Shown: positions 1 to 53,381 of the stretch, piece after piece
Layout: the number at the start of each line of letters is the position of its first letter
Numbering within the stretch: position 1 is the first letter of the stretch
IMG/VR virus record: IMGVR_UViG_2927464213_000002
Span: 1 to 64,000 of that record
Reading direction: 5' to 3' (one strand)
DNA from: a virus
Taxonomy: Duplodnaviria; Caudoviricetes
DNA length: 64,000 nt
The notes under the pieces: model-generated
What the model was told of the DNA's origin: nothing
Database searches by the model: none
Seen by the model: the letters and a program-made list of their open reading frames with translations, nothing else
Program-made: the position numbers and the translations under genes

Positions 1-228
1 CTATGCTGCCTTGTTGGTCAGCTTTTTCTGCCACTCGACCACCTCGTCGAGGAAGAAACCGATTCGCATCGGCGACAGTTCGTGGGACTGGGGGAAGCGC
101 TTTTCCTTGACCATGCGATGCAGGGTCGACCTGCTGACTGGCAGCCGCTTCAAGACCTCCGCCACCGAGATCATCGGTCTGACCTCCGGGAAGTTGTCCT
201 GCCTCGTGGTGGTGTTCGTGTCCGTCAT
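1..228 (-). CDS. AlpA-family HTH regulator/excisionase
   Basis: ISVAEVLKRLPVSRSTLHRMVKEKRFPQS..L..RIGF..EV.EW matches the AlpA pattern. Confidence 0.85.
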   Translation of the reverse strand: MTDTNTTTRQDNFPEVRPMISVAEVLKRLPVSRSTLHRMVKEKRFPQSHELSPMRIGFFLDEVVEWQKKLTNKAA

Positions 229-542
229 TTCTTCTTTCCAAATACCGTTTCGATGGTTGGCTCATTGGGCCGCTCGGGAGCGATCCAGCTTCGCGTTGGG
301 TTCTTCGTTCCCTTGACCCTGAAGTCCTGCTCCTGCCGCGCACGGTTGAGCTGGGTGACCATCACCTTGAAGCCGGCGAGGCAGGCCTGGTCCGGATCGC
401 GGAAGGTCTTCGGCTGGCCGTGCTGGTCGTGGACCCACATGGGTGGCTTGCCGGGGATGCCGAAGGTCCCGAAGAAGAGACCTTCGACCTGACCGTGACC
501 CACAGCCGTCGAGTAGTAGGAGGTGGCGACTTTCGTTTTCAT
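225..542 (-). CDS. hypothetical phage protein
   Basis: ATGA overlaps with both neighbours. Confidence 0.7.
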   Translation of the reverse strand: MKTKVATSYYSTAVGHGQVEGLFFGTFGIPGKPPMWVHDQHGQPKTFRDPDQACLAGFKVMVTQLNRARQEQDFRVKGTKNPTRSWIAPERPNEPTIETVFGKKK

Positions 543-1621
543 GCCGCCTCGGCGAAGACTGACCGCTCCAGCATCTTACGGTTCTGATTCCAACCGCGGA
601 GGTTGCCGTGCAGCTCGGGCTGCTGCCAGTGCTCGACCCGCCATTCGCCGTACGGTCCAACCTGTCCCGGAACACGAACGTCAGGCGTGGCCTGGTGCTC
701 GGCCGGCGAGGCGTGGAGAGGGCGCGATCCGACCAGGCGCTCATACAGGTCGAGGTCGGCCAGGCCGCTGGGCTTCTTCCCGTCGTGCGTCAGGTATGAC
801 GTGCGGGCGCAGCGAGCGACGGAGATCTTGATCAGCTCCTCGATCGAGCGCTCACCCATGAAGGTGCCCACATACTGGCTGTTCATCGTCGCCATGTGTC
901 GTGCCTCGTAGGGCAGTGGCTGGATGCAGTGCCGGTCGCTCTCCGTGATGAAGGGCAGGTGCCACTCACCCGGCTTGAGCTGCGTCGGGACGCTGCCGTC
1001 GAAGGCGCCCTTGATCGCCTTTGCCAAGGCCTCGATCTCCGGCTGGGCATCCTTGTGGTCGCGCAGCTCGAAGAAGTTGTCCCACTCCGTCGCCGTGATC
1101 AGCACGTTGATGTGGGCGAACGGCTCCAGGAGCCTGTTGACGATCTGCTTGTGGTAGCCGGCATTGTCATAGGCGCGTGCGAATGCGATGGCGCAGTCGC
1201 GGGCTTCCAACCACATCTGCTGCGGGCTCAGCAGCGAACCCTTGCGGACGTTGTCGTTGGCGAATGGGTGCGGGATGTAGTCGGCGAACGGATGCGTGAT
1301 CGGCGCATCGTTCTCCTGGTCGGCCTGCATGCCCTTCTGGTTCTTGCCCCAGTGGATCGGCATTGCCGTATCGTTGAGGATGTCGTCGATCAGGCGCTTG
1401 ACCGGGATGGCCCGGGAACTCGAAGCGTTGCGGCTCAGGTTGCGGTCGTACATCAAGCCGTCAGGGATCGTGAGGATCTCCATCAGGTCGGGCGTGGACG
1501 TGAGCAGACGATGCGTCAGCTCTTCGGCATGGATGAAGCGCGGGTATCTGGCGAGAACCGTCTTCAGCTCGATGCCTGCAGGCGAGATGCTGTGCAGGAT
1601 TTTTGTCGCGGAGATAGTCAT
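539..1621 (-). CDS. thyX: FAD-dependent thymidylate synthase (ThyX/Thy1, phage type)
   Basis: RFIHAEELTHR...SRNASSSRAIP, HKQIVNRLLEPF, ARCARTSY, HASPAEHQATP. Confidence 0.85.
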   Translation of the reverse strand: MTISATKILHSISPAGIELKTVLARYPRFIHAEELTHRLLTSTPDLMEILTIPDGLMYDRNLSRNASSSRAIPVKRLIDDILNDTAMPIHWGKNQKGMQADQENDAPITHPFADYIPHPFANDNVRKGSLLSPQQMWLEARDCAIAFARAYDNAGYHKQIVNRLLEPFAHINVLITATEWDNFFELRDHKDAQPEIEALAKAIKGAFDGSVPTQLKPGEWHLPFITESDRHCIQPLPYEARHMATMNSQYVGTFMGERSIEELIKISVARCARTSYLTHDGKKPSGLADLDLYERLVGSRPLHASPAEHQATPDVRVPGQVGPYGEWRVEHWQQPELHGNLRGWNQNRKMLERSVFAEAA

Positions 1622-1627
1622 AAAGGG

Positions 1628-1807
1628 TCAGTTTTCCGTTCGGTTGGCAACGAGGTGTTCGGCTTGCTCTTTCGAGTCGTAGGGCCCGATCGCGTCCCAG
1701 CAGCCTTCCGGCTCCAGTTCGAGGATCCACCAGCCGGCCAGCTCCTCGCCGACCTCTTCGGGCGGCAAGAACCTGACCTCGGTCTGGCTCATGGTTGCGT
1801 TGGTCAT
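1628..1807 (-). CDS. hypothetical protein
   Basis: AGGAG RBS before ATG at 1807; coupled to the upstream gene. Confidence 0.6.
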   Translation of the reverse strand: MTNATMSQTEVRFLPPEEVGEELAGWWILELEPEGCWDAIGPYDSKEQAEHLVANRTEN

Positions 1808-1968
1808 CGGAACAGCTCCTTGGCTTTCTGGAATTTGCTGTCGAGGCACAGCGAGAGGTGCCCGGACGAGACGCGGGCTTGGCAGGTGTCGAGCGGACGA
1901 CCGCTGAGGATCAAAGCGAGGGCGAGACCGATGCCCACGCCGACCAAGAGGGTGAGGGCGTCCTTCAT
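1804..1968 (-). CDS. small membrane protein
   Basis: N-terminal hydrophobic helix; ATGA coupling. Confidence 0.55.
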   Translation of the reverse strand: MKDALTLLVGVGIGLALALILSGRPLDTCQARVSSGHLSLCLDSKFQKAKELFR

Positions 1969-2465
1969 GCGTTCGCCGCCTTCGGCTGTTCGCCCGGGAC
2001 CAGCTCCAGGAGCCACTTGACCCGTGCTTCGAGCCGGCGGATTTGCGCGCGTTGCTCTCGGTTCTCGGTCAGCTGGGCGTTGTTGTGCTGGAGCAGCTCG
2101 GTGACTCGAGCCGAGTGCTGTTCCTGCTGATCCAGCGATGCGACGAGGCTGTCGAGCAGGAACGGCATCGTGCGGATGAACCCGACGAGGGCCTTGGCGC
2201 GATCGGCGGCGGTCGGGGAATGGCCGGTGAATGCGTAGACGATGCCGCCTTCGCCGATGACCATGTTCATCTCCGTCGTCTCTTCCATCTCCGGGAAGGC
2301 GACACGGGTCCTGGCCATCGTGACCTGGTAGTCGGCGAGATGTTCGGCGTCGGTCTGCTTGGGGGTGACGGCCCAGATCGGGTCCTGGACTTGAGCGAGC
2401 AGTCGTCTCGCTTCGGCCACGTAGGCAAGCATCTGTTCTTTGGTCACGATGGTGGTATCGGTCAC
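1965..2465 (-). CDS. hypothetical protein with C-terminal coiled coil
   Basis: GTG start after CAGGAG; phage-like codon usage. Confidence 0.65.
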   Translation of the reverse strand: MTDTTIVTKEQMLAYVAEARRLLAQVQDPIWAVTPKQTDAEHLADYQVTMARTRVAFPEMEETTEMNMVIGEGGIVYAFTGHSPTAADRAKALVGFIRTMPFLLDSLVASLDQQEQHSARVTELLQHNNAQLTENREQRAQIRRLEARVKWLLELVPGEQPKAANA

Positions 2466-2487
2466 GTCCTGCTCCTGAAAATTTCCA

Positions 2488-2526: not shown

Positions 2527-2532
2527 GAGCCG

Positions 2533-9479: not shown

Positions 9480-9713
9480 TCAAGCGGCAGGACGACCTTT
9501 TTTCCTCTCGTAGGCGGCGAGCCCTGCGTCGGTGAATTGCCCGTCCGCCGCAGCGAAACCCTTGCGGACCAGCGCGATCAGGCTGATCCGTTCGAGCTTC
9601 GTGGCGGCCACGGACCCGATGTCCCAGCCGCCTCGGTCGCGCCAGTACTTCTGTGCAGGAACCCACAGATCCATGAACTTCCGCTGCGCCTTCGACAACC
9701 GAGGTCTGGCCAT
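9480..9713 (-). CDS. hypothetical protein (possible winged helix)
   Basis: TGATG coupling; L..LVRKG...TDAG. Confidence 0.6.
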   Translation of the reverse strand: MARPRLSKAQRKFMDLWVPAQKYWRDRGGWDIGSVAATKLERISLIALVRKGFAAADGQFTDAGLAAYERKKGRPAA

Positions 9714-10153
9714 CAGTCCAGCTCCGGGTCGACGTAGAAGCGCCACTCCAATCCCTCGCGGTGCCACTGGCCGGCGCACACCGGGATGACCTTGTTGGCG
9801 GAGTTGAACTCGTTGTCGTTCGCGTGGTCCTCGTCGCCGATCAGCTCGCGCAGCTCTTGCGTGGGGATCAGCGTGCTTGTCCAGACCAGCTCGGTGTTGC
9901 CGACCTTGATCCTGGCGAAGTCCGTCAGCGAATTTTCGACCTGTGATATGGCGTGACGCAGGTCCGCCAACTCGGAGAGGTACATCGCGGCGTTGGTCGG
10001 TCCGCCACCTGGGTCGGTGCTGTCGAGACCGAAGCGGCCGATCTTGCCGTAGATCCGCAGGCAGCGCCCGATCACTTCGACGACCTCGCCAGACTCCTCG
10101 ACGACTCTGGCGACCTTGCCGTCTACTGTGGTGGGTAGGTATCTCGGGTTCAT
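9713..10153 (-). CDS. second MazG-like NTP-PPase fold protein
   Basis: VVEESGEVV...K..RFG...ELADL. Confidence 0.6.
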   Translation of the reverse strand: MNPRYLPTTVDGKVARVVEESGEVVEVIGRCLRIYGKIGRFGLDSTDPGGGPTNAAMYLSELADLRHAISQVENSLTDFARIKVGNTELVWTSTLIPTQELRELIGDEDHANDNEFNSANKVIPVCAGQWHREGLEWRFYVDPELD

Positions 10154-11299: not shown

Positions 11300-11794
11300 T
11301 CACGCCGCCATCTCCTTGCGCTCGTCGTTGTCGTTGGCCGCGTCCTTGTAGTTCGACTGCGCCCTGGCTTCCTTGAGCAGTTCGTCCAGGTCGATGCCCG
11401 GGATGATGTGCGCCTGGATGGTCTCCAGCGCGGCGTCGAAGTAGGCCTTAAACTCCTCCTCGCCCATCGCGTCGAACGCTGTAGAGGAGGGGATCATGAT
11501 GATCTCGCCAGCCGTGGTCATGACCGGCCGCACCACGCCGTTAGACAGCAGCAGCGTGTCGTGCAGCGAGTCCTCGGTCGCGAACAGATCGGTGTTGTGG
11601 GTCACGAGACGGAGGATCACCCGGTACAAGCGATGCCTGGGACCGCTCCGCGGCTGGGCGAACTGCGCCCGCACCGGTACGTTCTCCGGGATCGCCTGGA
11701 ACATCTCCACGTCGTACGAGGCATGCGGGATCAGGTGGCCGTCGACCTTGCGGACGAGGATCCACTTGTTTTTGGACTTGTTGCTCGCGCTCAT
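11300..11794 (-). CDS. DUF1367-like phage recombination-associated protein
   Basis: PRS..RHR.Y, PSS.AFDAM.EEEF..Y motifs; located near the exonuclease. Confidence 0.65.
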   Translation of the reverse strand: MSASNKSKNKWILVRKVDGHLIPHASYDVEMFQAIPENVPVRAQFAQPRSGPRHRLYRVILRLVTHNTDLFATEDSLHDTLLLSNGVVRPVMTTAGEIIMIPSSTAFDAMGEEEFKAYFDAALETIQAHIIPGIDLDELLKEARAQSNYKDAANDNDERKEMAA

Positions 11795-11997: not shown

Positions 11998-12258
11998 TCA
12001 GATCAGAGATCCCTGGCGGGACCGCTGGCTTGTGGATCTCGGTTTTGGTTGTGGTCTCGGCCGGTCGACCTCCTGCAGCTGCTCCACCTTCACCCGGCAC
12101 GCCTCGACGAGCGTTTCGATCTGCTCTTCGGTCAGGCCGTAGTCTTCGCGGTGAACCCGTTCGTCGGCCCACCACTGACGCAGGGTGGAGGGCGGACCCT
12201 CTGAGAGTGCGATCCCCCAGAGGGCCAGCTGCATGTAGGCCGCAGCCTTATCCGGCAT
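11998..12258 (-). CDS. hypothetical protein
   Basis: Overlaps the upstream gene; good codon bias. Confidence 0.6.
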   Translation of the reverse strand: MPDKAAAYMQLALWGIALSEGPPSTLRQWWADERVHREDYGLTEEQIETLVEACRVKVEQLQEVDRPRPQPKPRSTSQRSRQGSLI

Positions 12259-12970
12259 GGGCCGCGCGCTTCAGCTCCTGCGACTTGTCGCTGAGCTTGC
12301 CCATGACGTAGGCCTCGCCGTTCGACGAGAGCTTCTTCATGTCTTCGATGAAGGCCTTGTCGGCGGCGATTTCCATTGCCTGCTTCGTGCGCTCGATGCC
12401 GGCGATCTTGTCGGCCCAGAACGTCACGATCTTCTGACCCTCTTCCTTCGAGACCGAAGCCTCGCGAGCCGGGGGCTTGTCGTCGTTGGCAGCCGGCCGG
12501 CGCTCGTCACGCCGATCGTCGCGACGGTCGTTCGACCGGTTGTCCGGGTCCTGGTTGAAGTCGTCGGCTTCCTCGGACGAGTAGGCGTCGCCGTGCAGGT
12601 CGGCCAGCTTCAGGATCACGCGATCCTTCGCCCGCTTCTCCGCCATGGCGTACGGATACGCAGCCATCTTGCCCTTGACCTTGTAGTTGCCGCCGACCTC
12701 GTTCTCCTTCGAGATCAAGGCCTCGCCGATCGACCACTCGGTCTTGCCGTTGGCCTCGCCCATGACGAGGATGACGGCTTCGTCGCGCTCGGCACGCAGG
12801 ATCTCGGGCTTGGTCCACTTGATGCCGATGGCGGCACCCAGGCGTTCGACGTCCTTGTGCTTGACGACGGGCGTTCCCTGGACTTCCCAGATCGAGTCGC
12901 GATCGATGTCGACTTTGTGCTTGTCGAAGACGTCGTAGATCTTGTCGAGCTTCGGGTTCTTCCGTGCCAT
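12248..12970 (-). CDS. putative single-strand annealing protein (function inferred from position)
   Basis: YPYAMAEKRAKDRVILKL...YSSEEADDF; directly downstream of the YqaJ exonuclease. Confidence 0.55.
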   Translation of the reverse strand: MARKNPKLDKIYDVFDKHKVDIDRDSIWEVQGTPVVKHKDVERLGAAIGIKWTKPEILRAERDEAVILVMGEANGKTEWSIGEALISKENEVGGNYKVKGKMAAYPYAMAEKRAKDRVILKLADLHGDAYSSEEADDFNQDPDNRSNDRRDDRRDERRPAANDDKPPAREASVSKEEGQKIVTFWADKIAGIERTKQAMEIAADKAFIEDMKKLSSNGEAYVMGKLSDKSQELKRAAHAG

Positions 12971-12984: not shown

Positions 12985-13941
12985 TTAAGCGGCTTCGGCC
13001 GCGGTGGTGGGTTTGTCGTTGCTGTTGGCGGCCTTGCGGGAACGGGTCGCCTTCGGCTTGGGCTCCGGCTGGGGACGGCCAGCGTCCTTGTCAGCCTGTG
13101 CGACCGCTACCTTGTCGATCTTCACGAGCATCTTGCCGTCGCTCGAATAGGAGATCGTCACGCCCTTGCCGGACGCTTCCTTGGCGTCCTGCGGCATCTT
13201 CTTCTTGATCGCCTTCTTCGCGGTCTCGTGCGCATCGACGGCGGACTTTGTCTCCACCATCTTCTGCGCGAGGTCGCACCACTCGTTGTCCTGGCTCATG
13301 TCGGCGACACGAACTTTCTCGAGCAGCGGGATCTCGATGGTGGGCGTGCCGGGCGTGCGGCCGGTCTGGACGCAATCCCAGAAGTCTTGCTCCGCCTGGA
13401 GCATCTTGGCCTGGTAGAAGATGTCGGCCTCGACCTCCATGACGACGTGCTGGGCAGCGCCGGTGATGATCGACAGGTACGAGAGCGGCAGGTCCATCAC
13501 CATCATGTTGTGCTGGCACTGCGCGTAGTACTTGTCGTAGGCCTTCTGCTTGTCGAAGCCGAAGGGCATCATGAACTTGAACTCGACCATCGCGATGACG
13601 GGAGCCTCGATCGCCTTGCGAACGAGTCCGTCGAGGGTCGCGTGAGCCTTGTCCCAGTCCTTGTAGAAGACCTTGTCCTGCTCGTTGGTCACGGCCAGGT
13701 TCATCTGGAACTCGAACCAGTCAGCATTCAGCTGCTCGGTCGTGTTGCCCATCTGGACCAGCAGGATCTCGGACATGTCCTCCTGCTCCTGTTCGCCGCG
13801 CTTCTCGCGCCACAGTCGCTCAATGGCGCGCTGATCGCCGGACATGATGATCCGCGCGTCCGATCCACCGATGGACGTCATGCGGGCGGCGCGAGCCTCA
13901 TCGCTCATGCCAAGGTGGCGGGTACGACGTAGGAACTGCAT
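12985..13941 (-). CDS. YqaJ/lambda-exonuclease family recombinase
   Basis: IGGSDA, G...E, ATLDG, VEFK, YYAQCQHNM, FW.CV. Confidence 0.88.
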   Translation of the reverse strand: MQFLRRTRHLGMSDEARAARMTSIGGSDARIIMSGDQRAIERLWREKRGEQEQEDMSEILLVQMGNTTEQLNADWFEFQMNLAVTNEQDKVFYKDWDKAHATLDGLVRKAIEAPVIAMVEFKFMMPFGFDKQKAYDKYYAQCQHNMMVMDLPLSYLSIITGAAQHVVMEVEADIFYQAKMLQAEQDFWDCVQTGRTPGTPTIEIPLLEKVRVADMSQDNEWCDLAQKMVETKSAVDAHETAKKAIKKKMPQDAKEASGKGVTISYSSDGKMLVKIDKVAVAQADKDAGRPQPEPKPKATRSRKAANSNDKPTTAAEAA

Positions 13942-19629: not shown

Positions 19630-20465
19630 CAGATCGCCATCCCCGGGCGACCTCGCGGACGAGCCGGTGCGCTCTCGGTTTCCCAACGCGCCTTGTTGAT
19701 CCAGACGCTGGCCGCCGCGATGAAGCGCTCGTTGTTCGGGTCTTCCTTGACCTGAGCGTTCATGCGATCGGCGTAGTGGCGGAGGCCGGCCATCAGGTCG
19801 ACGAACTCGACCTCGTCGTCGTTATGGACCTTGTCGAGCTTCGCCCAAGCATCCTTCCGGCTGTCGCCGCGCTTCTTCGGGTAGAGCTTCCAGAACTGCT
19901 CCCGATAGTCCTCGGGCCAGGGCGCGGTCTTGCGCGCCTTCTTCCGGTTAGCTTTGGGTTCATCTGATGGGTTCAGTGTGGATTCATATGATAGGTTAGG
20001 CGGCATGACGAGCCGCTGGTCACCGGCACCAGATTCCGCACCCACCGGCACGTCGTTCCGGTCCCCACCGGAATCTGATGCCTCTGCCGGAGGCATTTCC
20101 TGCTGCGGCACGTCGTTCCGGTCCTTATCGTTGTCGTTTGCTGCAGTTTTCCTGGCGCTACCACCGGAACGAGATGCCGGTGGTTCTTCCGACGAGCCAG
20201 CAGCAGGCTCAGTCATGTTCAGGTAGATCATGTCCGTGGTATCGCGGCGCTTGACGCGGCGGATCAGGTTCATGTCTTCGAGGTCGGTCATAGCGTTGCG
20301 GACAGCGCGCACGCACGCCTCAACCTCGTCGGCGATCCGCTGCTGCGATGGCCAGCACGCACCATCGGCATCGTTCGCTCTGTTGGCGATCGACATCAGC
20401 ACTGCTTTGCGGAGCGTGCTGCCAGTCTTGATCTTTCTCGCCCAGGATTGCGCGTCGAAGCTCAT
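19629..20465 (-). CDS. phage replication initiator (lambda O-like, N-terminal HTH)
   Basis: KAVLMSIANRAND..G.CWPSQQRIA; C-terminal F..FWKLYPKK...W.N..RW; internal iterons. Confidence 0.85.
   Translation of the reverse strand: MSFDAQSWARKIKTGSTLRKAVLMSIANRANDADGACWPSQQRIADEVEACVRAVRNAMTDLEDMNLIRRVKRRDTTDMIYLNMTEPAAGSSEEPPASRSGGSARKTAANDNDKDRNDVPQQEMPPAEASDSGGDRNDVPVGAESGAGDQRLVMPPNLSYESTLNPSDEPKANRKKARKTAPWPEDYREQFWKLYPKKRGDSRKDAWAKLDKVHNDDEVEFVDLMAGLRHYADRMNAQVKEDPNNERFIAAASVWINKARWETESAPARPRGRPGMAI
19950..20183. repeat. iteron array and A-rich flank within the initiator gene (probable origin)
   Basis: Repeated CCACCGG(C/A)A-N5-T(G/T)CCG dyads, mostly at ~21-bp spacing. Confidence 0.7.
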
Positions 20466-20578
20466 TCGTTAGTTCCCTTGGATTTGACCCGCTCAGCGGG
20501 ATCGTGTATTTGCAGGAATGCAAATGAAAATGCAAGCCACGACATTTCGTGCCTGCTCAACTCGAGTCACACACCAGA

Positions 20579-21190
20579 ATGGGTTCCATCCTCGTCGCCG
20601 GCCTTGACCCGGCCTTCGCCAATTTCGGCATCGCCAGGATGCGCCTCGACCTCGACAGCCTGGAGCTGTCGCTGGAGGCCGTCAGGACGCTCACCACGCG
20701 GGCGATCGATAAGGCGGCCCGCAAGGTGGTGCGGAAGAACAGCGACGATCTGCGCCGCGCCAAGGAGCTGCATGACGGCTTCCACGAGGCCATCGCAGGC
20801 TGCAAAGTAGCGTTCGGCGAGATCCCGACAGGAACCCAGGGGCAGCGCGCCGCCTTAGGCTTCGGCGTGGCGCTCGGCGTGCTGGCGTCGTGTCCGATCC
20901 CGATCATCCAGGTGATGCCGGTCGAGACCAAGATGGCCAGCGTTGGCGATCCCAAGGCCGAGAAACCGGCGATCATCGCCTGGGCCGCGGAGCGCTATCC
21001 GGACATCGACTGGCAACGATATCACGAAAACGTGATGTACCGTGGGAAGCAAACCCGGAGCGCAGGCGATTTGCATGAAGACAACGAGCATGCGGCCGAC
21101 GCGACCGCCGCGTGCCACGCCGGAATCCGCACGGAGCAATTCAAGCAACTGATGGCGCTCTGGAAAGCGGTAGGATTTGGCGGTCACTAA
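20579..21190 (+). CDS. RuvC-like Holliday junction resolvase
   Basis: VAGLDPAFANFG, FGEIP, P.ETK, EH.ADA.A. Confidence 0.8.
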   Translation: MGSILVAGLDPAFANFGIARMRLDLDSLELSLEAVRTLTTRAIDKAARKVVRKNSDDLRRAKELHDGFHEAIAGCKVAFGEIPTGTQGQRAALGFGVALGVLASCPIPIIQVMPVETKMASVGDPKAEKPAIIAWAAERYPDIDWQRYHENVMYRGKQTRSAGDLHEDNEHAADATAACHAGIRTEQFKQLMALWKAVGFGGH

Positions 21191-21419
21191 GAAACCGTTT
21201 ACCTTTCAGACATTTGAAGCCCAATTCCCGGTCGCGGCCCAGACCGGGAACAAAAAACCATTTGCAATCGTGCGAAACCGCCTTTAGAGGTTCGCGTTAG
21301 CATCCGTGCAAACGGTGGGGACCAATTGTGTTTTGCATTCGGAATCATTCTAGATCTGGGGATTTGTGCTGGTGAGTCAGCACTGACTTTCATTCGTTAA
21401 GAGTTTGCACTGCGAAAGC

Positions 21420-22154
21420 ATGATATTGGAGGACCGCAAAGTGTCTGAAGCGGTAGTAGAAATGAAAACCCCGAAGAAGGCTGTGATCGACTGGATCGAT
21501 CACATCCTCGATAGGAAGAAGTGGGACGGAACCCGTCTCGCGCGTGAAGCAAAGCTCGCGCCTTCCACCATATTGCGTCTACTCAACGATCCTGAACATC
21601 CCTTTATTCCAACTCTCAAGACCCTGCAGAAGATCGCCGACGCCTCCGGCTATCCGATCCCTCGCAAGGTGACCGAAGCCCTCGGCGCTCCGAAGATGGA
21701 AGCCCCAGAGACGAGCGAAGAGGAAACCAGCAACGGCACCGAGCGCCGGTCCCGCCTTAGGACGTTCCAAGTCGAGCTTCGTCATGTGTCGTCGTTGCCG
21801 GCCTCACTGCAGGCGGCCACGACTTCAACGCGGCGCGAAGGAACTTACGTCCCGGCGCCAGCCCAGCTGGAGAACGACGAGACTGCGTTCGCATTCTATA
21901 TGCCGGACGACAGCTTCGAGCCTTGGGTGAAGTCTGGTTCCCTTATGTTTGCCACCAAGCGCAGGGATCCAGTGCGGAACGATGTTCTGGTCGTGACCGA
22001 CAAGAACGAGCGCACGAAGCTGCGCTTGCTCCTCGGCATCGACGAAGATGGCCTTCGCATGCTGAAGCAGTTCGGCAGCGAGGAGGAGGAACGGCTTGGG
22101 TTCGACGACATCAAGGATATCGCGATCCTCGTCGGCCTTATCAAGACGATCTAG
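21420..22154 (+). CDS. CI-like repressor (XRE HTH plus S24-like domain)
   Basis: LAREAKLAPSTILRLL...TLQKIA; C-terminal AFAF.MPDDSFEP. Confidence 0.8.
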   Translation: MILEDRKVSEAVVEMKTPKKAVIDWIDHILDRKKWDGTRLAREAKLAPSTILRLLNDPEHPFIPTLKTLQKIADASGYPIPRKVTEALGAPKMEAPETSEEETSNGTERRSRLRTFQVELRHVSSLPASLQAATTSTRREGTYVPAPAQLENDETAFAFYMPDDSFEPWVKSGSLMFATKRRDPVRNDVLVVTDKNERTKLRLLLGIDEDGLRMLKQFGSEEEERLGFDDIKDIAILVGLIKTI

Positions 22155-22164
22155 GGCAGGGGCC

Positions 22165-22566
22165 TCAGCCCCCGCCCTCGACATCGAACGTCCTCTCGAT
22201 AGCTGCGACCAGACCATCAATGCGTGGCACTGATGCTGTCAGGTCGTAGATGTCGAGGCCGTTCCTCAGTTCAGTCAGTCGCTTGAGCCAGGCCTCGTCG
22301 TTCGCGACCTTCTGGACGTTGACGATGCTCTCCCACTTTTCCTGGTTGATGGAGAGCGTCACCTTCTCGATCTCAAAGTCCACGAAGTCGATGAACTCCT
22401 TGATCGGGATTGCGACCTTATCCATCGCCGGCTCGATGATCAGCATCTGCTGACATATGTCCTCCAGTATTCCCTGGAGGCGGCTCTGGAATCGAGCGTT
22501 GATCGGCTGCGGTCGCACAGCCGGCTCGACAGTCCTAGTTTGCTTTTTCGCCATTTGCTGAAGCAC
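22165..22566 (-). CDS. hypothetical protein
   Basis: Open frame of 133 aa convergent on the repressor. Confidence 0.65.
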   Translation of the reverse strand: MLQQMAKKQTRTVEPAVRPQPINARFQSRLQGILEDICQQMLIIEPAMDKVAIPIKEFIDFVDFEIEKVTLSINQEKWESIVNVQKVANDEAWLKRLTELRNGLDIYDLTASVPRIDGLVAAIERTFDVEGGG

Positions 22567-22837
22567 CTTTCTTCAAGGCTTTCATGCGAACGTTCGTTTC
22601 GATCGCCTTGAGATCCTCTTTGGTCGCCCGCCATGGCTTCAGGCCGCGATCGAGCGCAGCCAGAGCCAGGGCGATCGCCTTGGTGGCGCCGCGCATTTCG
22701 TATTTGCTTATTGCCTGAGGTGTCAGACCGAGCCACTCGCCCAGCTTCGCGTGGGTCAAGTTCCTAGAAAGCCTCCAGGCCCGGATTTCCGTGCCCGAAA
22801 GGAATTTTTCGGATGCAGCTCGCCTTCCTGTTGGCAT
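22535..22837 (-). CDS. XRE/Cro-like HTH regulator
   Basis: IRAWR...LTHAKLGEWLGLTPQAISKYE. Confidence 0.8.
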   Translation of the reverse strand: MPTGRRAASEKFLSGTEIRAWRLSRNLTHAKLGEWLGLTPQAISKYEMRGATKAIALALAALDRGLKPWRATKEDLKAIETNVRMKALKKGASANGEKAN

Positions 22838-22970
22838 GGTTTTGTTTCCCAATGCACACAAAAACGAACTGCATTTGCGCAGTCGTAACGAGGTGCTGGT
22901 GGCACCTTTTATCAGGAAGTGCAAATATTAAAGCGGCGTCAATTCGGCAAGGCAGACCTGCCGATCTTAA

Positions 22971-23165
22971 TCACGCCGCATTTGAGATCGGCGCAGCAAT
23001 GATTCGAGCTGGATGGCCCAGCTTCCATTGCTCTTGAACCTTCAGCAGGGCAGACGCTCGCACTGTTGGCTCGCACACGACCTGCCACTTCGGCGGTTTG
23101 TTGCCGCGCATGAACGCCACGACAACCACCTGTGGTTCGGTCTTCGTTTGTTTCCGCTGTTTCAT
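22971..23165 (-). CDS. hypothetical protein
   Basis: GAGGAG RBS. Confidence 0.6.
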   Translation of the reverse strand: MKQRKQTKTEPQVVVVAFMRGNKPPKWQVVCEPTVRASALLKVQEQWKLGHPARIIAAPISNAA

Positions 23166-23175
23166 GTCTCCTCTT

Positions 23176-23445
23176 TTATACCGCCTCCACGAATTTCTCA
23201 ATCGGACCGTCCAGCTCGTCGAAGGCGTTGACGATCGAACGGTTGTGCTTGTCATCGACCCAGATCACGATCGTAACGACGACACCTTGTTCATTAGTGT
23301 ACCGTTCGATCTGGTCGACGACGCCGTCCGTACCGGGCGGCATGGTGTGCTCGATGTCTTCGTGGTCTGCTCCCTTGGTTTCGACGAGGGTTTTGATCTT
23401 TTGGCCGCGCGTCAGGCCGCGCCACTGCGCCACCAGCTCAGCCAT
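23176..23445 (-). CDS. hypothetical protein
   Basis: Coupled ORF. Confidence 0.6.
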   Translation of the reverse strand: MAELVAQWRGLTRGQKIKTLVETKGADHEDIEHTMPPGTDGVVDQIERYTNEQGVVVTIVIWVDDKHNRSIVNAFDELDGPIEKFVEAV

Positions 23446-23810
23446 AGACGATGTCCCCGAGTACGCAGGCCTGGAGGAAGACGTCCGCGGTCTCGGCATC
23501 ACCGGTCTCTTCGATGATCTCGGCGACGCGGTGGGGATGGTTCTTCATCAGCCACGCCAGGCCGGCCTTCACCCTGTCCGGAGGTGAAGCTGTGCGTCGC
23601 GCTGTCCTCGTCGGCCAGCACCTCGATCTCGAAGTCGCCGTCCCACACCTTCGGGTCGGAATACCACGGACCCTCAGTAGCCCGCTCCTTGCCCCGCTTC
23701 GAGGTGAAGCGTTCGAGCCAGTAGTTGGAGCCGCCTTCCAGCGCGGTGACGATCTGGTCGGCGAGCTGTTGCGCCGTAATGGTCGGCGCCTCGATGGTGG
23801 TCGCTGTCAT
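23438..23810 (-). pseudogene. frameshifted phage hypothetical gene
   Basis: After ...HSFT (~23582), skipping one base restores PDRVKAGLAWL...GDAETADVFLQACVLGDIVYG*, which overlaps the next start. Confidence 0.65.
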
Positions 23811-24052
23811 GATGCAATCCTCTTGATGTGAGCTATGTCGATTTCCCCGAAGCGTCGGGGCATCCTGGCGCGCACAGCTGCGCACCAGTCCTTCTTGGTG
23901 GGGATCTCCTTGACCTTGCGGACTGGAGCGCACTGCTCGCAGACCGCAACGTCGGATCTTCTGTGCCAGTGCCTGGTCAGGCCGAAGCAGAAGCAGCAGT
24001 TCTCCGCGGGCTCGGGAAAGCTGGTGCCGTCATGCACGATGGAGATCGGCAT
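23807..24052 (-). CDS. small Cys-rich (Zn-finger) protein
   Basis: CCFC...CEQC. Confidence 0.6.
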   Translation of the reverse strand: MPISIVHDGTSFPEPAENCCFCFGLTRHWHRRSDVAVCEQCAPVRKVKEIPTKKDWCAAVRARMPRRFGEIDIAHIKRIAS

Positions 24053-30362: not shown

Positions 30363-32588
30363 TCAGGCTGCTTCTGACAGCGGGTCGATCTCGTCCTCGA
30401 CCGGCTCGGCGTTCTGGTTGTTGTCGTTCAGCGCCAGCGCAGCCCTCGCGATGTCCGCCTGCCGCTGCAGGAGCTGCTGCTCTGCATGGAGGAGGTCACA
30501 GTAGTGCTTGAGCTGGCGCTGGGTTTGGGCAGCGTCCGTGCGGTTCGAGTACGAGTAGTACGGGTTCGGCTCGATGATCAGCTTGAGCAGCGCGTACTTC
30601 GAGCACAGCTCGCGGTAGCGCCGTTCCATCGCTGTGATCGGGCACTGCACCTCCGGCTTGTCGATCGCGATCCCCAGCCGGGACAGGGCGGAGTGCGCCT
30701 TGTCGGTCGGGGTATCGACGGTCGAGTTGCCCCGGAGAGCGGTGCCGAGCGCCGTCAGCTCGGTCTTGAACAGCAGCAGGTCGCCCGGCGCATTGGCGAA
30801 CGTCGCCGGCGTCATGCCGACGATGCCCCGCAGAGCCGAGTCGAGATCGTTGAAGGACTTCTGGTGCAGTCCGGTGAACGTCGAGACGTCGATCTTGGCT
30901 TGCAGATCAGGGATCAGGTCATCCCCGAACAGCGTCCAGTTGTCGCCGAGCGCAGCGTGATCCTCGCTCTGGATCAGGATCGTGGTGCCGACCTCGACCA
31001 GGCCCAGCTCGAAGGATGCCGAGATGACTTCCTTCATCACGCTGAGCGAGACGCTGCTCTGTTCGGTCGAGACCTTGACGTATTCGTTACCGCGGCGCCG
31101 GCTGTAGAGGCCGTTGCTGACGCGCTGCAGGTAGAAGCCGCCCTCGGCGAGGTCGACGTCTTCCTGCGACACGAGGACGCCACCACCCTCGGTGACCACC
31201 ATCACCCTGCGGCGACGGACGGTCTTGCCACGGGTCCGCTTGCTCGCCGGCACCTTGAAGGTGTCCAGCTCGACGACCTCGGGATTGCCGAGAGCATTGA
31301 GCACGTCCTCTCGGAACGCTCGCTTGCATCGGATCCAGAGCACCTTCTGGCCGACCAGCTGCGCCATCTGGAAGCGCGAGTAGGAGTAGCTGGGGTTGTG
31401 CTCGATGACGATCTTGGCGTCACGGCACCAGCTCATCCGAACCGTGGTGTCTTCGAACTTGTCGAAGTGAACCCAGCCGTCCGACAGCATGCCGGTCTTG
31501 GCGTTGATCTTCGGAACGGTCGCCGAGAGCGTCAGGCCGCGCCACTTCACGATCTCGCGCAGCTTGTCGGTCCGAGAGACGCCGAGCGACTCGGTTGCTT
31601 CCTCGAACAGCTCGACCGCGCCGATCAGGTCTTCAGCCGTGTCGACTGCCGTCTGACAGTTCCGGATGAAGTTCTGCTCGTACTCCTCGGTCAGGCGGGC
31701 CAAAGTCGACTTGGTGTTGTCGTCGTAGGCCAGCTCTTCGCGGGACAGAGTCACCTTCAGGGAGCCGATCGGCGCATCGAACAGGACGGCATCGCTGTAG
31801 TCGAGGAAGCCCGTCGTCTTGATCTGCCGCATGTCGAACGGGTACATCACGCAGCCCATGCGGACGTGCGGACCGCTGAACGGCACCGTCCCGCTCTTGT
31901 AACGGGTGTAGTTGTCGCCCTGGCTGATGACGACCGGCTCCTTCCAGTCGATCGCCGGGGTGATCTTCGGCCGCGGCGTGAAGGACCAGAGGATGGTGCG
32001 AGCCCGATCGTGGAACTCGCGGATGTCCTCACGGCGAACCGGGAAGGACACTTCGAGGCCGGTCGGCTCGTCGGACGGTGCCTCGATCAGCAGACGCATG
32101 GTCGGCGCACCGCTCTGCGAGAGCGAGAGCACATAGGTCCGCATCATGCCGCCGTGGTAGGACGTCACGGTGTAGGAGCCGGAGCCCGAGTCCGAGATCA
32201 GGTAGGCATAGGGGCTCTTCGAGCCGAGACCCCAGCCGCCGACCTGGTCGTTGCTGCCGCGCTTGGTCGAAGCGTAGAGGCGGGCGTAGACGTTCTTCAT
32301 GTCCTCGGGCGACATCCCGGGGCCGAAGTCACGGAACGAGATCGTCGGCGAGAGCGGCGTCGGCAGCCGGATCTGCGGGATCTTGTCCTCCGGGATGTCG
32401 TCGCCGTACTTCAGGCGCGAGCCGTCCCACATGTTCGTCGTCAGCTCGCGGATCGGGTAGCCGATCTTGTCCTTCGCCAGACCGGAGATCTGAGCGTAGA
32501 ACGCCACCGCGTTGGCTTCGAACGAGATAGCGACTTCATCCTGCACTCCAGAGGCGACGTCCACATGCTCTTGCAATCCGAGTTTCAT
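30363..32588 (-). CDS. rIIA-like protein (GHKL ATPase N-terminus)
   Basis: IREL.TN.WD, RDFGPGMS, YASTK..SN...GGWGLGSKSPYAY, MG.V.YP, SREELAYD. Confidence 0.85.
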   Translation of the reverse strand: MKLGLQEHVDVASGVQDEVAISFEANAVAFYAQISGLAKDKIGYPIRELTTNMWDGSRLKYGDDIPEDKIPQIRLPTPLSPTISFRDFGPGMSPEDMKNVYARLYASTKRGSNDQVGGWGLGSKSPYAYLISDSGSGSYTVTSYHGGMMRTYVLSLSQSGAPTMRLLIEAPSDEPTGLEVSFPVRREDIREFHDRARTILWSFTPRPKITPAIDWKEPVVISQGDNYTRYKSGTVPFSGPHVRMGCVMYPFDMRQIKTTGFLDYSDAVLFDAPIGSLKVTLSREELAYDDNTKSTLARLTEEYEQNFIRNCQTAVDTAEDLIGAVELFEEATESLGVSRTDKLREIVKWRGLTLSATVPKINAKTGMLSDGWVHFDKFEDTTVRMSWCRDAKIVIEHNPSYSYSRFQMAQLVGQKVLWIRCKRAFREDVLNALGNPEVVELDTFKVPASKRTRGKTVRRRRVMVVTEGGGVLVSQEDVDLAEGGFYLQRVSNGLYSRRRGNEYVKVSTEQSSVSLSVMKEVISASFELGLVEVGTTILIQSEDHAALGDNWTLFGDDLIPDLQAKIDVSTFTGLHQKSFNDLDSALRGIVGMTPATFANAPGDLLLFKTELTALGTALRGNSTVDTPTDKAHSALSRLGIAIDKPEVQCPITAMERRYRELCSKYALLKLIIEPNPYYSYSNRTDAAQTQRQLKHYCDLLHAEQQLLQRQADIARAALALNDNNQNAEPVEDEIDPLSEAA

Positions 32589-32627: not shown

Positions 32628-33644
32628 TCAGGCGCTGAGCAGGCCTTCGTCGTCGAAGAGATCGAGGAACGAGGACTGGCGGTGAGGCCGGTTGATGAGG
32701 TAGATGGCGTCATCCAGCTCTTCGGAGCTGACGTTGCTGTCAGCCAGGTACCGAGCGACCTGCCGCGGGTACTTGAAGACCAGATCCTCGAGTTCACGCT
32801 GGCGCAGCTGCTTCAGCATCCGCATGGTTCGCGCGGTCCTGCTGTCGCCGAAGCTGCTGCCAGCCGACGAGCCCGACCAGGTTGAGCGCTTCACCTCCGG
32901 CTCCGTGGCCTTCGGATTGCGCTCGATGACGAACTTCGAGGCGTCGATCTTGACCATGTGATCGCGCAGCTCGAACAGGTGCTGGACGCACTGCGTCTCG
33001 CGATCAGTGTGCTCGTTCTCGTACCCGACCGAGACATTCGAGCACTCCGGCACGATGCCCATGTAGATCTTGGTGTCGGTCAGGATGCCGGTCGGGTCGT
33101 TCTTGAACCGGCTCGGCAGCTGAGCAGCCAGCGAGTCGCCGAATGCATCCGACGCCGTCCGTCCCCGCTGGTGGGTGATGACGGACGTGAAGCCGCGTCG
33201 ATCGAAGGCGATGGCGGCCTGGATGCCGGCCAGGAACTCCGGCGTCTCGTTGGCGATGCCACCCGAGCCCTTGCAGCCAACCTCTTCCCCGAAGTGGAAG
33301 ACGTACAGACCTGGCACCTTGGCCTCGATCATCTTGATCATGATGAAGTTGCCGGCCGCGTCGTCAGCTCCGAGGCAGTTCGACTTGGACTTCTTCGGCA
33401 GGTGGATCTTGGTGCCGGTCATCTCGATCTGCTGGAAGCCCTCATCCCGGTGGACGCTGTCCGTGTGGGAGGACCAGAGGATCATCGGCTTCTCCTCGCC
33501 GACGATCATGAACCGGTTGCCGAACTTGTCGGTCTGCACCCCGAGCGGGGTGATGAACCGATCGATGTAGGCAAGCTCGGTCTTCGAGCCGTAGGGACGA
33601 CGATGCGAGAGCATCGCCTTGAGCATCTCAAGGTCGTTGGACAT
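32628..33644 (-). CDS. M28-family Zn peptidase
   Basis: SHTDSVH, LGADDAAG, GEEVGC.GS, AFDRRG, NVSVGY.NEHT. Confidence 0.85.
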   Translation of the reverse strand: MSNDLEMLKAMLSHRRPYGSKTELAYIDRFITPLGVQTDKFGNRFMIVGEEKPMILWSSHTDSVHRDEGFQQIEMTGTKIHLPKKSKSNCLGADDAAGNFIMIKMIEAKVPGLYVFHFGEEVGCKGSGGIANETPEFLAGIQAAIAFDRRGFTSVITHQRGRTASDAFGDSLAAQLPSRFKNDPTGILTDTKIYMGIVPECSNVSVGYENEHTDRETQCVQHLFELRDHMVKIDASKFVIERNPKATEPEVKRSTWSGSSAGSSFGDSRTARTMRMLKQLRQRELEDLVFKYPRQVARYLADSNVSSEELDDAIYLINRPHRQSSFLDLFDDEGLLSA

Positions 33645-41069: not shown

Positions 41070-41657
41070 TCAGGCTGCTGCGGCACGGCGCTCCAGCTCC
41101 TGCTCGGCGAGGCTGACTTGATCGAACGCTGCTCGCCAGATCGAGTACCGGACGTTCCTGATCTTATCGAGGACCAGGATCAGGGCTTTCTTCTCCGGGA
41201 CATAGGTCCGGGCGAACCCGCCGCCGTGCTCCAGGATGTCACGGGTGTTGCTGAGCATGTCAGCGCATTTGACGAACTGTCCCTGCCACGACGCGCCTGC
41301 CAGGAACTGCCGGTCGATCGTCTTGCGCAGGGCACGATTGCCCACGCCGTCCGGCGTCTTGCAGCTGTCCTGGCGGCTCACGTCCGTGACCTCGACCACG
41401 ATGTTGGCGACGACCGCGCCGAAAGCTCCAACCAGCTCCTGGTAGGAGGTGTCGGTATCCTCGATCGTGTCGTGCAGCCAACCGGCGGCGATCACCTCGG
41501 CCGGCGCGGCATACTGGTGCAGCGTCTCCGCGACCTCTTCCAGGTGCAGCCAGTAGGGCGCCTTCGTGAACTTGCGGAGATGCCCTTGGTGCTTCCGTTT
41601 GGCGAAGTCCTCGGCTCTCGTGATCAGGCTGTAGTCCATGTCAGGCGGCTTCCTCAT
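41070..41657 (-). CDS. HD-domain small alarmone hydrolase (Mesh1/SpoT-HD-like)
   Basis: FA..KH.G..RK....PY..H...VA, WLHDTIEDT, VTD, VK.AD...N. Confidence 0.85.
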   Translation of the reverse strand: MRKPPDMDYSLITRAEDFAKRKHQGHLRKFTKAPYWLHLEEVAETLHQYAAPAEVIAAGWLHDTIEDTDTSYQELVGAFGAVVANIVVEVTDVSRQDSCKTPDGVGNRALRKTIDRQFLAGASWQGQFVKCADMLSNTRDILEHGGGFARTYVPEKKALILVLDKIRNVRYSIWRAAFDQVSLAEQELERRAAAA

Positions 41658-41835
41658 TGTCGTTGCAGGGCCGGCTCACGATCGGGAGAAGGCCGAGCAT
41701 GTGGATGTCGAGAGTGATCGGCTCCACCCAGGCGAAGCCGGAGCGATCCCGATGCGTGTGGTTGAAGGTGACGGTCTGGACGACGACCGTGCCGAACGGC
41801 AGGCGTTGTCCTGGTGGCATCCCGATGGCGAACAT
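41641..41835 (-). CDS. hypothetical protein
   Basis: GGGAGG RBS after dyad motifs; ends in CNDNEEAA. Confidence 0.55.
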   Translation of the reverse strand: MFAIGMPPGQRLPFGTVVVQTVTFNHTHRDRSGFAWVEPITLDIHMLGLLPIVSRPCNDNEEAA

Positions 41836-49781: not shown

Positions 49782-49793
49782 TGGATTTCCTGA

Positions 49794-49994: not shown

Positions 49995-49997
49995 GGC

Positions 49998-51876: not shown

Positions 51877-51911
51877 GGCGTGGTCTCCGGTGGGTATGGG
51901 GTGGAGCGCGT

Positions 51912-52265
51912 TCAGCGCTGAGCGAAGCGAGCCTTGCGACGGGCATAGCCGGGCGTCGGAGGCTGGAAGCGGGGGCCTACGAAGGGCGTGTAACGCAGGT
52001 GGGGCTCCTTGGCCTCGAAGTGCGTCTCAGCCCATGTGCGGCGTGCCAGCTCGATCCTGTGCATGCCGGCGAGTGTGTCCGGGCTGACGTCCGCCTCCGG
52101 GATCATGAGGCGGGTTTCAGCCAGTGTGGTCTTGGCCTCGTCGCCGCTCTTGGGGGTGATCAGCATTTCCCGACCACCCGGAAAATTTGAAGCCAGCCAG
52201 TCCGCGTCAGACAGGGGGCGGGGGGTCGTTTTCGCATTGGCGAATGCACGATTTTTCCGGGGCAT
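51912..52265 (-). CDS. hypothetical protein
   Basis: GGAG upstream of MPRKN. Confidence 0.5.
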   Translation of the reverse strand: MPRKNRAFANAKTTPRPLSDADWLASNFPGGREMLITPKSGDEAKTTLAETRLMIPEADVSPDTLAGMHRIELARRTWAETHFEAKEPHLRYTPFVGPRFQPPTPGYARRKARFAQR

Positions 52266-52287
52266 GCTCACACTCCGTGGAGGGCAC

Positions 52288-52316
52288 AAAAAAGGCCCCC
52301 GGCGGTGAGGCCGGGA
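52288..52316 (-). terminator. intrinsic terminator
   Basis: CCCGGC-CTCACC-GCCGGG hairpin followed by a T6 tract. Confidence 0.65.
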
Positions 52317-52349
52317 ACCTTGCGATTTGCGGGGGCGAGTGGCGGGGGC

Positions 52350-53381
52350 TTAGGCCGCCTTGCGCTTCCGGGACTTCTTTGCGGGGGCTTCCGCCGTGGT
52401 CTCTTCCGCCTTGCCCTCTTCCGCCGGGGCTTCCGGAGCGGGCCGGGGCAGGAGCAGAATGACGTTTTCCGCAGTGGGGGCTTCCGCCGAAACCGACGCG
52501 CCGACCTTGGCGTTAATGTGCGCCTGAAGCGTCATTAGTGCATCGATCGAAAGCGTATCAACCGCCGCCATGATGGCCGCCAGTTTCTCGCTTTCGGTCA
52601 ACGGGGCGGGGGCTTCCGCTTCCGCCGACTCGGGGGCAGTGGCTTCCGCCTTGGCTTCCGCCTTGTCGTCGCCGCCCTTGTCCGCCTTGTCCGCCTTGGC
52701 CATGTCGTGCCATTCGGCCAAGCGGGATTGCATGATACCCCACTGCCCGGAAAGCAATTCGCCAACCTTGGCGTTCCACATGGTTTCGGCCGACTCGACC
52801 GACGCGGCGCGGGCACATTCCAGAATGACCGGCGCGTGGTTCAGGCGCATGAAAGAGGCAAGGCGCGTTCCGTAGGTCCGGAGCGTTTGCAGGGAGTCGA
52901 TAAGCTTGACGTTGACCGGCTTACCGTTGCTGCCAGTGGCGCCGGTATGCTTCAGTTTCACGTATTCCGACGCCAGCTTGTTCCGCTCGCTTTCGGCCGC
53001 CTTGAGTGCATCGCCCGAAAGCCGGTCAAAGCTTGCGGTAGCGGACATGATCGCCGCCGCATGGGACTCGGTGCCGCGCCAAATCATCTTGCCAGCCTTG
53101 GCGACCGGAACCAAAATGTCGCGGGTGAAAATCCACGCGTCTTTCTGCGGATCATAGTTGTTATCCGTCAGAACGGCGCGGATTTGCTCGCCGCAAAGGT
53201 TCAGCGCCAGCATGGTGACGGCGTTGTAGGTCGACGACTCGGCCGCGCCAAGCGACTTAATCGCAAGGTCCGCCGCACGAGTCTGGATCGTATCGGCATA
53301 CTTTTCCGTTGCGGACTGCAACACGTTGGTTTCTGCCATCTCTTGCGCGGTAGCGGCGCGGGTATCGGTAGCGGTAGCCAT
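52350..53381 (-). CDS. Ala-rich hypothetical protein, first gene of the leftward arm
   Basis: 343-aa ORF with its own terminator and an AT-rich upstream region. Confidence 0.75.
   Translation of the reverse strand: MATATDTRAATAQEMAETNVLQSATEKYADTIQTRAADLAIKSLGAAESSTYNAVTMLALNLCGEQIRAVLTDNNYDPQKDAWIFTRDILVPVAKAGKMIWRGTESHAAAIMSATASFDRLSGDALKAAESERNKLASEYVKLKHTGATGSNGKPVNVKLIDSLQTLRTYGTRLASFMRLNHAPVILECARAASVESAETMWNAKVGELLSGQWGIMQSRLAEWHDMAKADKADKGGDDKAEAKAEATAPESAEAEAPAPLTESEKLAAIMAAVDTLSIDALMTLQAHINAKVGASVSAEAPTAENVILLLPRPAPEAPAEEGKAEETTAEAPAKKSRKRKAA

Follow-up and report, generated by a model that had tools for sequence, protein, structure and literature searches.

In Alphaproteobacteria, the A-N-D-N box of the peptide tag encoded by transfer-messenger RNA (tmRNA, ssrA) is read by the adaptor SspB. 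The cellular degrons of Caulobacter are not known to copy this box and make use of other adaptors (CpdR, RcdA, and PopA). Mobile-element proteins recognized by ClpX constitute a further group (the C-terminus of MuA, lambda O, and the Mu repressor); the signal of MuA is a basic C-terminal peptide and that of lambda O an N-terminal motif, and neither copies the tag or contains an SspB-type box. In Escherichia coli, the N-terminal part of the tag binds SspB and the terminal LAA binds ClpX, while the DAS+4 tag, in which the adaptor box is kept, the ClpX end is weakened, and the spacer is longer, is SspB-dependent (bioRxiv 10.1101/2023.11.08.566101). In Caulobacter, replacement of a C-terminal AA, VA, or AG by DD stabilizes the ClpXP substrates CtrA, KidO, TacA, GdhZ, and ShkA (bioRxiv 10.1101/2020.04.29.069633). 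Here, five gene-encoded protein tails that appear to copy the constant parts of the tmRNA tag are described from the window, i.e., the opening 64 kb (positions 1 to 64,000) of the virus record IMGVR_UViG_2927464213_000002 (Caudoviricetes; 121,913 bp), which represents its early half.

Five C-terminal tails and the host tag

Five minus-strand genes in the window end in an [A]-N-[D/S]-N box, followed by a spacer and a C-terminal AA (Table 1); all five tails quoted in a preliminary description of this DNA are present in the sequence. The box is exact (ANDN) in the UvrD-like helicase and in the NinB-like recombination mediator, and takes the form ANSN in the exonuclease, LNDN in the rIIA homolog, and CNDN in the product of the open reading frame (ORF) at 41641. 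The distance from the box to the terminus is 6 residues in the NinB-like protein, 8 in the helicase, 8 in the exonuclease, 2 in ORF41641, and 16 in rIIA. In the helicase, the last Pfam domain ends at residue 500 of 527 and gives way to a Pro-rich linker. Three of the tails recur unchanged at the ends of public proteins (P0001 and P0241, 100% identical; P0121, 99%). The tail of ORF41641 overlaps the called start of the next gene (41657), which may own part of the constraint and makes this case weaker evidence; rIIA is the weakest of the five.

Table 1. Positions in the window of the tailed genes and of further early genes with a terminal AA
Feature	Position	Strand	Remarks
UvrD-like SF1 helicase, 527 aa	26695..28278	-	Pfam UvrD-helicase/UvrD_C; tail ..PPANDNKQTVAATKAA
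Helicase tag-like tail ANDNKQTVAATKAA	26698-26739	-	preceded by Pro-rich linker
NinB/Orf-like recombination mediator	11300..11794	-	PHROG 319 NinB/Orf; tail AANDNDERKEMAA at 11303-11341
YqaJ-type exonuclease	12985..13908	-	Pfam YqaJ; tail AANSNDKPTTAAEAA at 12988-13032
rIIA homolog	30363..32546	-	PHROG 612 RIIA; C-terminus ..ALNDNNQNAEPVEDEIDPLSEAA
rIIA long acidic tail LNDNNQNAEPVEDEIDPLSEAA	30366-30431	-	
ORF41641, 64 aa, family unassigned	41641..41835	-	tail CNDNEEAA at 41644-41667
123-aa protein, family unassigned, ends ..GKEAA	28651..29022	-	AA in 6/6 orthologs; preceding 8 residues 24% identical; no NDN box
HD-domain protein (Pfam HD_4), ends ..RRAAAA	41070..41657	-	AA in 6/6 orthologs; preceding 8 residues 17% identical; no NDN box
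125-aa protein, ends ..TRFAA	37406..37783	-	AA in 4/5 orthologs
ThyX-like protein (Pfam Thy1), ends ..FAEAA	539..1621	-	AA in 3/4 orthologs
AlpA-type regulator (Pfam Phage_AlpA), ends ..NKAA	1..228	-	AA in 3/3 orthologs

The host tag, as read by ARAGORN from the two-piece tmRNA of both Bradyrhizobium genomes that hold related prophages, is ANDNFAPVAQAA. In both genomes the tmRNA (RF01849), SspB (PF04386), and ClpX (TIGR00382) score over the cut-off, and the host SspB has structural matches in that of Caulobacter (2qas and 2qaz; E about 1e-35 to 1e-37). The sspB and tmRNA genes lie ~300 bases apart in the same orientation (L016/L018, G002:C2:644764-645906; L017/L019, G001:C2:1082997-1084138); the genes for tag and adaptor are neighbors in both genomes.

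A survey of 41 sampled genomes of the host's class, with ARAGORN run on 28 tmRNA loci and one locus left out, yields 24 natural tags. Of these, 19 begin with ANDN and one with ANSN, and every one of the 24 terminates in AA. The box is followed by a variable residue (Y, E, S, F, V, R, D, A, or G), and in ANDN tags 4-7 residues separate the box from the terminal AA (6 in the host). Across the class, the tag is thus constant in its ANDN box, its spacing, and its terminal AA, and these appear to be precisely what the phage tails retain. The comparison with the host ssrA tag proposed in the preliminary description thus bears out, the tails seemingly copying the constant parts of the host tag, and the NinB-like tail has the same length and spacing as an Ala-extended host tag.

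No tmRNA gene is found in the window (ARAGORN) or in the whole record (RF00023), and an SspB encoded by the phage was looked for and not found. An origin of the tails as a trans-translation product or from a phage-borne tmRNA is ruled out, the tails lying in frame inside ordinary ORFs of a phage that has no tmRNA.

Frequency, conservation, and level of constraint

Bradyrhizobium phage BDU-MI-1 matches ~26% of one 10-kb stretch of the window at 73% nucleotide identity, and the related prophages are located on contig 10 of one Bradyrhizobium genome (G001) and contig 21 of the other (G002). As BDU-MI-1 carries an annotated integrase, the lineage, to which the present Bradyrhizobium phage belongs, is temperate. 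Genes were called with a model of codon usage derived from long ORFs rich in guanine plus cytosine (GC) at the third codon position, which gives 191 genes across the whole record. Positions 1-53426 form a minus-strand block of 96 genes (the early block), which includes AlpA, ThyX, a class II ribonucleotide reductase, SSB, and a primase-helicase, along with the YqaJ exonuclease, the UvrD-like helicase, the NinB/Orf-like mediator, and rIIA. Ala accounts for 10.3% of residues in this genome, and the AA dipeptide for 1.3%.

Given its composition, the genome is markedly rich in the motif. ANDN occurs five times versus 0.28 expected, a count reached in 0 of 500 within-protein shuffles, and all five occurrences sit in the early block. 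Within the last 25 residues of proteins, ANDN is found twice (0.03 expected) and NDN five times (0.3 expected). The complete bipartite tail, N[DS]N-x2-18-[AV]A-end, is present in five proteins of this genome versus 0.02-0.05 expected, with a maximum of one in 100 shuffles. In the six related phages (G000, BDU-MI-1, the two prophages, G003, and G004) it is found 5, 5, 4, 4, 3, and 4 times, respectively, while shuffles that keep the last two residues give at most 0.07 each. Altogether, 25 of 1168 phage genes and none of 418 host genes carry it (p=0.0008).

The terminal AA taken by itself is modestly enriched, and the bipartite pattern is much sharper. The preliminary description put the number of genes ending in AA at about 15; the count in positions 1-53426 is 14 of 96 (p=0.008 versus the host), and 5 of the 95 other genes of the record share this ending. 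Across the six phages, AA terminates 126/1168 genes versus 24/418 in the host (odds ratio 2.0, p=0.002), counts that are not independent, as the six genomes are related; in this genome alone the difference is marginal (19/191 vs 24/418, p=0.087). ATGA/GTGA overlaps or ribosome-binding-site constraints were considered as a cause of the AA termini and rejected, since uncoupled genes show the enrichment as well: among those that lack any potential start of a following gene from -40 to +15 relative to the stop, the proportions are 56/500 and 21/348 (p=0.011), and among genes without an ATGA/GTGA stop context they are 81/790 and 18/316 (p=0.019). An excess over the host that vanished on removal of start/stop overlaps would have refuted the proposal by the terms of the preliminary description; it does not vanish.

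In the host background, the same gene calling on 400 kb of G001 finds 19 of 343 genes ending in AA, no ANDN in 103,111 residues, and one NDN in a last-25 window. A scan of both lysogen genomes (15.2 Mb) for NDN followed by 2-12 codons, [AV]A, and a stop returns 17 matches, i.e., two tmRNA tags, seven prophage genes, and eight others; four of the latter are in frame, within frames of 14-36 codons that have no start codon. No ordinary host ORF with such a tail is present in the 15.2 Mb scanned. One 29-codon frame without a start codon (minus strand of L095, ~1501-1590; G002:C1:544714-544746) ends in ..PPANDNQDKSAAA, similar to the tail of the helicase, and could be left over from a further prophage gene. 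Separately, three long paralogs in G001:C2 (L020:17191-19191, L035:8051-9712, and L035:11960-13882) end in ..FLNSVRAA, ..FIAGVRAA, and ..FLAHIRAA, respectively, and may be host proteins with conserved AA termini.

Across homologs at 55-100% identity, the box and the terminal [A/V]A persist while flanking residues change. In the helicase, NDN is present in all six genomes, with an AA end in four and VA in two; among the 41 closest database homologs (63-100% identity), N-x-N with [AV]A is found in 39, NDN in 35, and a spacer of 5-9 residues in 37. At 55-57% identity the box drifts to ANENN, ANQNN, ANSNES, or ANTN with AA retained, and at ~50% identity most proteins end directly after the helicase core. 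The only invariant tail columns in an alignment of 36 helicases are one Pro, N515, N517, and A527. Some helicase orthologs have a doubled box (..PPANDNQKAVAANDNKKGQLALPGVA) and a GVA end instead of KAA (L005:1448-3061, L006:3001-4614, L010:1-1128; P0024, P0028, and P0040). Among 401 sampled genomes of the host's order, the helicase is found only in the genome already known to carry it.

The exonuclease has N[SD]N and AA in 6/6 genomes; of its 65 closest homologs, 64 end in AA and 61 combine the box with [AV]A, and AA is kept in 27 of the next 32 homologs, which have no box. The spacing in the helicase and exonuclease families is mostly 5-8. In the NinB-like protein, ANDND is found in five and an AA end in all of the six genomes, and 76 of 81 database homologs end in AA or VA, either in a short form (..NWKEAA, 50/81) or in a long form AANDNDER..E[AV]A (..NYKDAANDNDER...E[AV]A, 26/81). 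ORF41641 has NDN in 6/6 genomes and ends in AA in three, in VA in two, and with an extension of three residues in one. As AA is kept in more families and in more distant homologs, it would constitute the older and wider layer, to which the box was probably added in sub-lineages, mirroring the two-part logic of the tag.

The wider occurrence of the terminal AA is visible in 82 orthologous families with at least five members. In 24 of them the terminal dipeptide is kept in at least 80% of members; this dipeptide is AA in nine families, and every other dipeptide accounts for at most one. Examples without the NDN box, in which the preceding residues vary, are included in Table 1.

The constraint acts on the protein, since codons vary and the motif word is read in frame: of the 59 copies of AAYGAYAAY that the six phages contain, 50 lie in the sense frame. 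The Asn codons of the motif are AAC (65) and AAT (7), the Ser codons of the exonuclease box are AGC (4) and TCC (1), and all four Ala codons are in use at the terminus. On these grounds, a DNA-level motif at gene ends is ruled out.

Internal ANDN-like motifs, which the preliminary description listed alongside the tails, are present in the ThyX-like protein (FANDN), the product of 9713-10153 (HANDN), the initiator (AANDND), the annealing protein encoded at 12248-12970 (AANDD), and ORF48182 (ADNDN). They are not kept in orthologs and lend the proposal no support, so they were dropped as part of the system. Two labels given at the same time, 'MazG' for 9713-10153 and 'DUF1367' for the NinB-like gene, find no Pfam match at E<=0.001; the NinB-like gene product matches PHROG 319 (NinB/Orf), and a 98%-identical protein bears the NCBI name 'DUF1367 family protein'. 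The gene adjoining rIIA (32628-33644, minus strand) matches PHROG 4191, labeled 'peptidase', and has no Pfam match. It was rejected as a dedicated protease: its PDB matches are only weak, to chains of designed beta-propellers ('Pizza'), and the label is doubtful. The GC content dips to 0.59 at 20001-24000 and 52001-56000 of the window versus 0.61-0.635 elsewhere; the first of these stretches holds the only plus-strand genes of the early block (20579-22154), and the second corresponds to the end of the minus-strand block.

Similar tails in other mobile elements

A scan of IMG/VR with the pattern AACGACAAC, 15-24 bases, GCNGCN, and a stop, which shows recurrence and not frequency, finds at least 117 loci with at least 120 matches. 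The counts that follow, for IMG/VR as for the cellular genomes, hold among the matches listed. In-frame ends of ORFs of at least 60 codons make up 37 of 120, versus 8/115 and 9/115 (17/230) in two control scans with permuted codons (p=3e-8). Ala, which is not demanded by the pattern, precedes NDN in 27 of the 37 tails, and it precedes the motif in 1 of 17 control tails (p=4e-6). Of the eight tails in the first control, three or four are in fact ANDN tails shifted by one codon.

BLAST groups the 37 tails into 20 clusters, 14 of which have Ala before the box; the helicase, exonuclease, and NinB-like protein described above match none of the 20. Pfam names assigned to these clusters comprise HK97-type and lambda-type portals, two kinds of DNA methylase, an AAA_24 ATPase, a PD-(D/E)XK nuclease, an SNF2/DEAD helicase, two lysozymes, a PAPS reductase, an RNA ligase, and a Mor activator. 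One portal has rhizobiophages as its nearest named relatives: the portal of Rhizobium phage 16-3 (L455:376-1566) ends in ..PPTANDNQEDEAEAA, that of RHph_TM3_3_14B in ..PPANDNKSDDEAQAA, and that of RHph_Y3_1 in ..SPTNDNKSDDEAQAA. The portal of a Labrenzia phage (L457) has no such tail. The rhizobiophage portal tails conform to ANDN/TNDN-x6-AA (L455:376-1566, L456:253-1521, and L458:274-1551), and the portal genes end in an overlap (GCATGA) of their stop with the first codon of the gene for the prohead protease.

In five more alphaproteobacterial genomes, the same pattern matches at least 30 loci, the in-frame cases among those listed being five tmRNA tags, a repeat element, and an ORF ending in ..HNDNGPGSPDRKDVA. 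The repeat element is present at no fewer than 21 places in genome G411, where a UPF0236 ORF (up to ~500 codons open) ends in ..TPANDNISPRAAAMAIAA (L496:31-1548, plus strand; also L491, L502, and L513); the tmRNA tag of the same genome is ANDNSMALAA. This looks like a tag-like tail on a transposase-like protein, possibly with some host-specific resemblance.

Possible roles and relation to known systems

Mimicry of the tag appears well supported by statistics, conservation, and convergence, while binding, degradation, SspB dependence, and purpose are what we infer from it. With a probability of roughly 0.5, the five tails, as copies of the host tmRNA (ssrA) tag written into the phage genes, act as ClpXP degrons. 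Each tail would then be a flexible C-terminal peptide composed of an A-N-D/S-N box, a tag-like spacer, and a free terminal Ala-Ala or Val-Ala, the box being bound by SspB as an adaptor enhancer and the terminal AA/VA being read by ClpX. The helicase, exonuclease, NinB/Orf mediator, rIIA, and the small protein would most likely be substrates of host ClpXP, short-lived unless engaged or assembled, and the tails might limit the lifetime of proteins that would harm a lysogen or serve the phage only at an early stage. The motif is found on proteins with no kinship to one another, in mobile elements that are themselves unrelated, and what these most simply have in common is a conserved host reader rather than a phage-specific partner. 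The stabilization of Caulobacter substrates by a change of AA, VA, or AG to DD matches the alternation of AA and VA in the phage families. With a charged position -3 and spacer, direct recognition by ClpX would probably be weak and degradation adaptor-dependent, as with DAS+4 tags.

Several observations weigh against this degron reading. In 107 of 121 family tails, position -3 is occupied by K, E, or D, whereas in 20 of 21 natural tags it is hydrophobic or Ala, and the charged fraction of the spacer is 0.48-0.78 in phage tails versus 0.17 in natural tags, so that the charged tails may be poor ClpX substrates or, equally, weak ones that act as competitors. ORF41641 (2 residues) and rIIA (14-16, longer than in any tag) depart from the spacing of the tag; the rIIA orthologs end in AA in 6/6 genomes with a spacer of 14-16, but contain NDN in only 3/6. 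The tag itself comes from two genomes with related prophages, in which it is identical, and stands in for that of the exact host of the record. In other phages, the same tails are located on portals, lysozymes, and methylases, which a timer of early proteins fits poorly; on portals and lysozymes they fit the removal of unassembled proteins, a decoy role, or the recruitment of a chaperone.

It is rather unlikely that the tails are decoys, which would bind SspB and/or ClpX and occupy the tag-reading machinery, thereby shielding other phage proteins or blocking protease-triggered responses (e.g., antitoxin degradation in abortive infection). Such a role would draw on the same sequence evidence of mimicry as the degron reading, charged and possibly slowly processed tails would suit a competitive binder, and ClpXP is saturable by abundant or hard-to-degrade substrates (bioRxiv 10.1101/2023.11.08.566101). 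Tails on abundant late proteins, i.e., the portals of other phages, also fit it better than they fit a timer; however, 3-5 specific enzymes per genome carry the tails instead of one dedicated, highly expressed small protein, and the terminal AA is kept in many families without the box, which resembles control of individual proteins. Between a timer and saturation of the protease, sequence cannot decide. Non-proteolytic docking, in which the tail would recruit a host factor for remodeling or assembly (ClpX in an unfolding or chaperone capacity, or a different protein that reads the box), seems improbable as well. ClpX acts as an unfoldase/chaperone on the MuA transpososome, the motif is conserved at the protein level, and the carriers are oligomeric machines (here the helicase, exonuclease, and recombination mediator; elsewhere portals, UPF0236, and the AAA_24 ATPase). 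We know of no partner of ANDN..AA besides the tag readers, no search having been aimed at one, and docking alone leaves aside that both constant ends of the tag are copied and that the terminal AA/VA is a documented determinant of ClpXP degradation in Caulobacter.

There is very little to be said for tails without a function, arising as a by-product of composition, low-complexity linkers, overlaps of start, stop, and ribosome-binding site, or a DNA-level element. Such an origin could draw on the frequency of AA termini in the host (5.7%, above an AA dipeptide frequency of 2%), the marginal AA excess in this genome alone (p=0.087), an NDN tripeptide that is genome-wide no commoner than its permutations, and the lack of conservation of the internal ANDN motifs. 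Shuffled proteins yield at most 0.07 tails per genome versus the 3-5 seen, though, and the AA enrichment survives the removal of coupled genes. In the 36 helicases, N, N, and the terminal A are invariant while their neighbors vary, synonymous codons vary with the DNA word in the sense frame in 50/59 cases, and 0 ordinary host ORFs in 15.2 Mb have the tail; in viral contigs, permuted-motif controls are 4-5 times poorer among the matches listed.

A broader proposal, put forward tentatively and with some leaning toward doubt, is that alphaproteobacterial mobile elements widely and convergently hard-wire the constants of the tag, with SspB-ClpXP serving as an adaptor-tunable lifetime control or being engaged by a decoy. 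The carriers might include one or more multi-copy insertion elements, as well as temperate phages as far apart as this Bradyrhizobium lineage and Rhizobium phage 16-3; the proteins concerned might comprise helicases, nucleases, recombination mediators, portals, methylases, lysozymes, and transposase-like proteins. If the degron reading is true, phages borrow the disposal signal of host ribosome rescue, adaptor box included, and set the lifetime of their own replication and recombination enzymes with it. The tails would then be a natural counterpart of the engineered adaptor-dependent degron tags of synthetic biology, alphaproteobacterial SspB would gain natural substrates beyond tmRNA-tagged proteins, and a proteolytic layer would be added to the timing of phage gene expression and to the safety of the lysogen. 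The boxes of the tails would be predicted to follow the tag class of the host across phages.

A literature search found no report of genome-encoded tmRNA-tag copies on phage proteins, an absence that is unproven, as most subscription journals lie outside its coverage. The closest described relative of the tails is the alphaproteobacterial tmRNA tag, with which they share the A-N-D-N box and the terminal AA, separated by 5-8 residues in most helicase and exonuclease tails and 4-7 in the tag. They differ from it in being encoded by the gene and not added by trans-translation, in the charged spacer and position -3, which are hydrophobic in tags, in the box variants ANSN, VNDN, LNDN, and DNDN, and in a VA end on some tails. 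The Caulobacter cell-cycle degrons (CtrA AA, KidO VA, GdhZ AA, and PleC AA) likewise have a hard-wired C-terminal AA or VA in the same class of hosts and resemble the AA-only phage families 28651, 41070, and 37406, whereas the five tails add the box of the tag. MuA, lambda O, and the Mu repressor are comparable as replication or transposition proteins of mobile elements with an intrinsic ClpX signal, but the present tails recur in many unrelated protein families. With DAS+4, the phage tails have in common the box, a longer polar spacer, and a polar residue before the terminus; DAS+4 is synthetic and its terminal AA is removed, whereas the phage tails keep AA or VA and would probably share its dependence on the adaptor. 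The tag, SspB, ClpXP, C-terminal AA degrons, and ClpX-recognized phage proteins are thus known parts, and what is new is the recurrent copying of the adaptor box of the tag together with its terminus by proteins of mobile elements.

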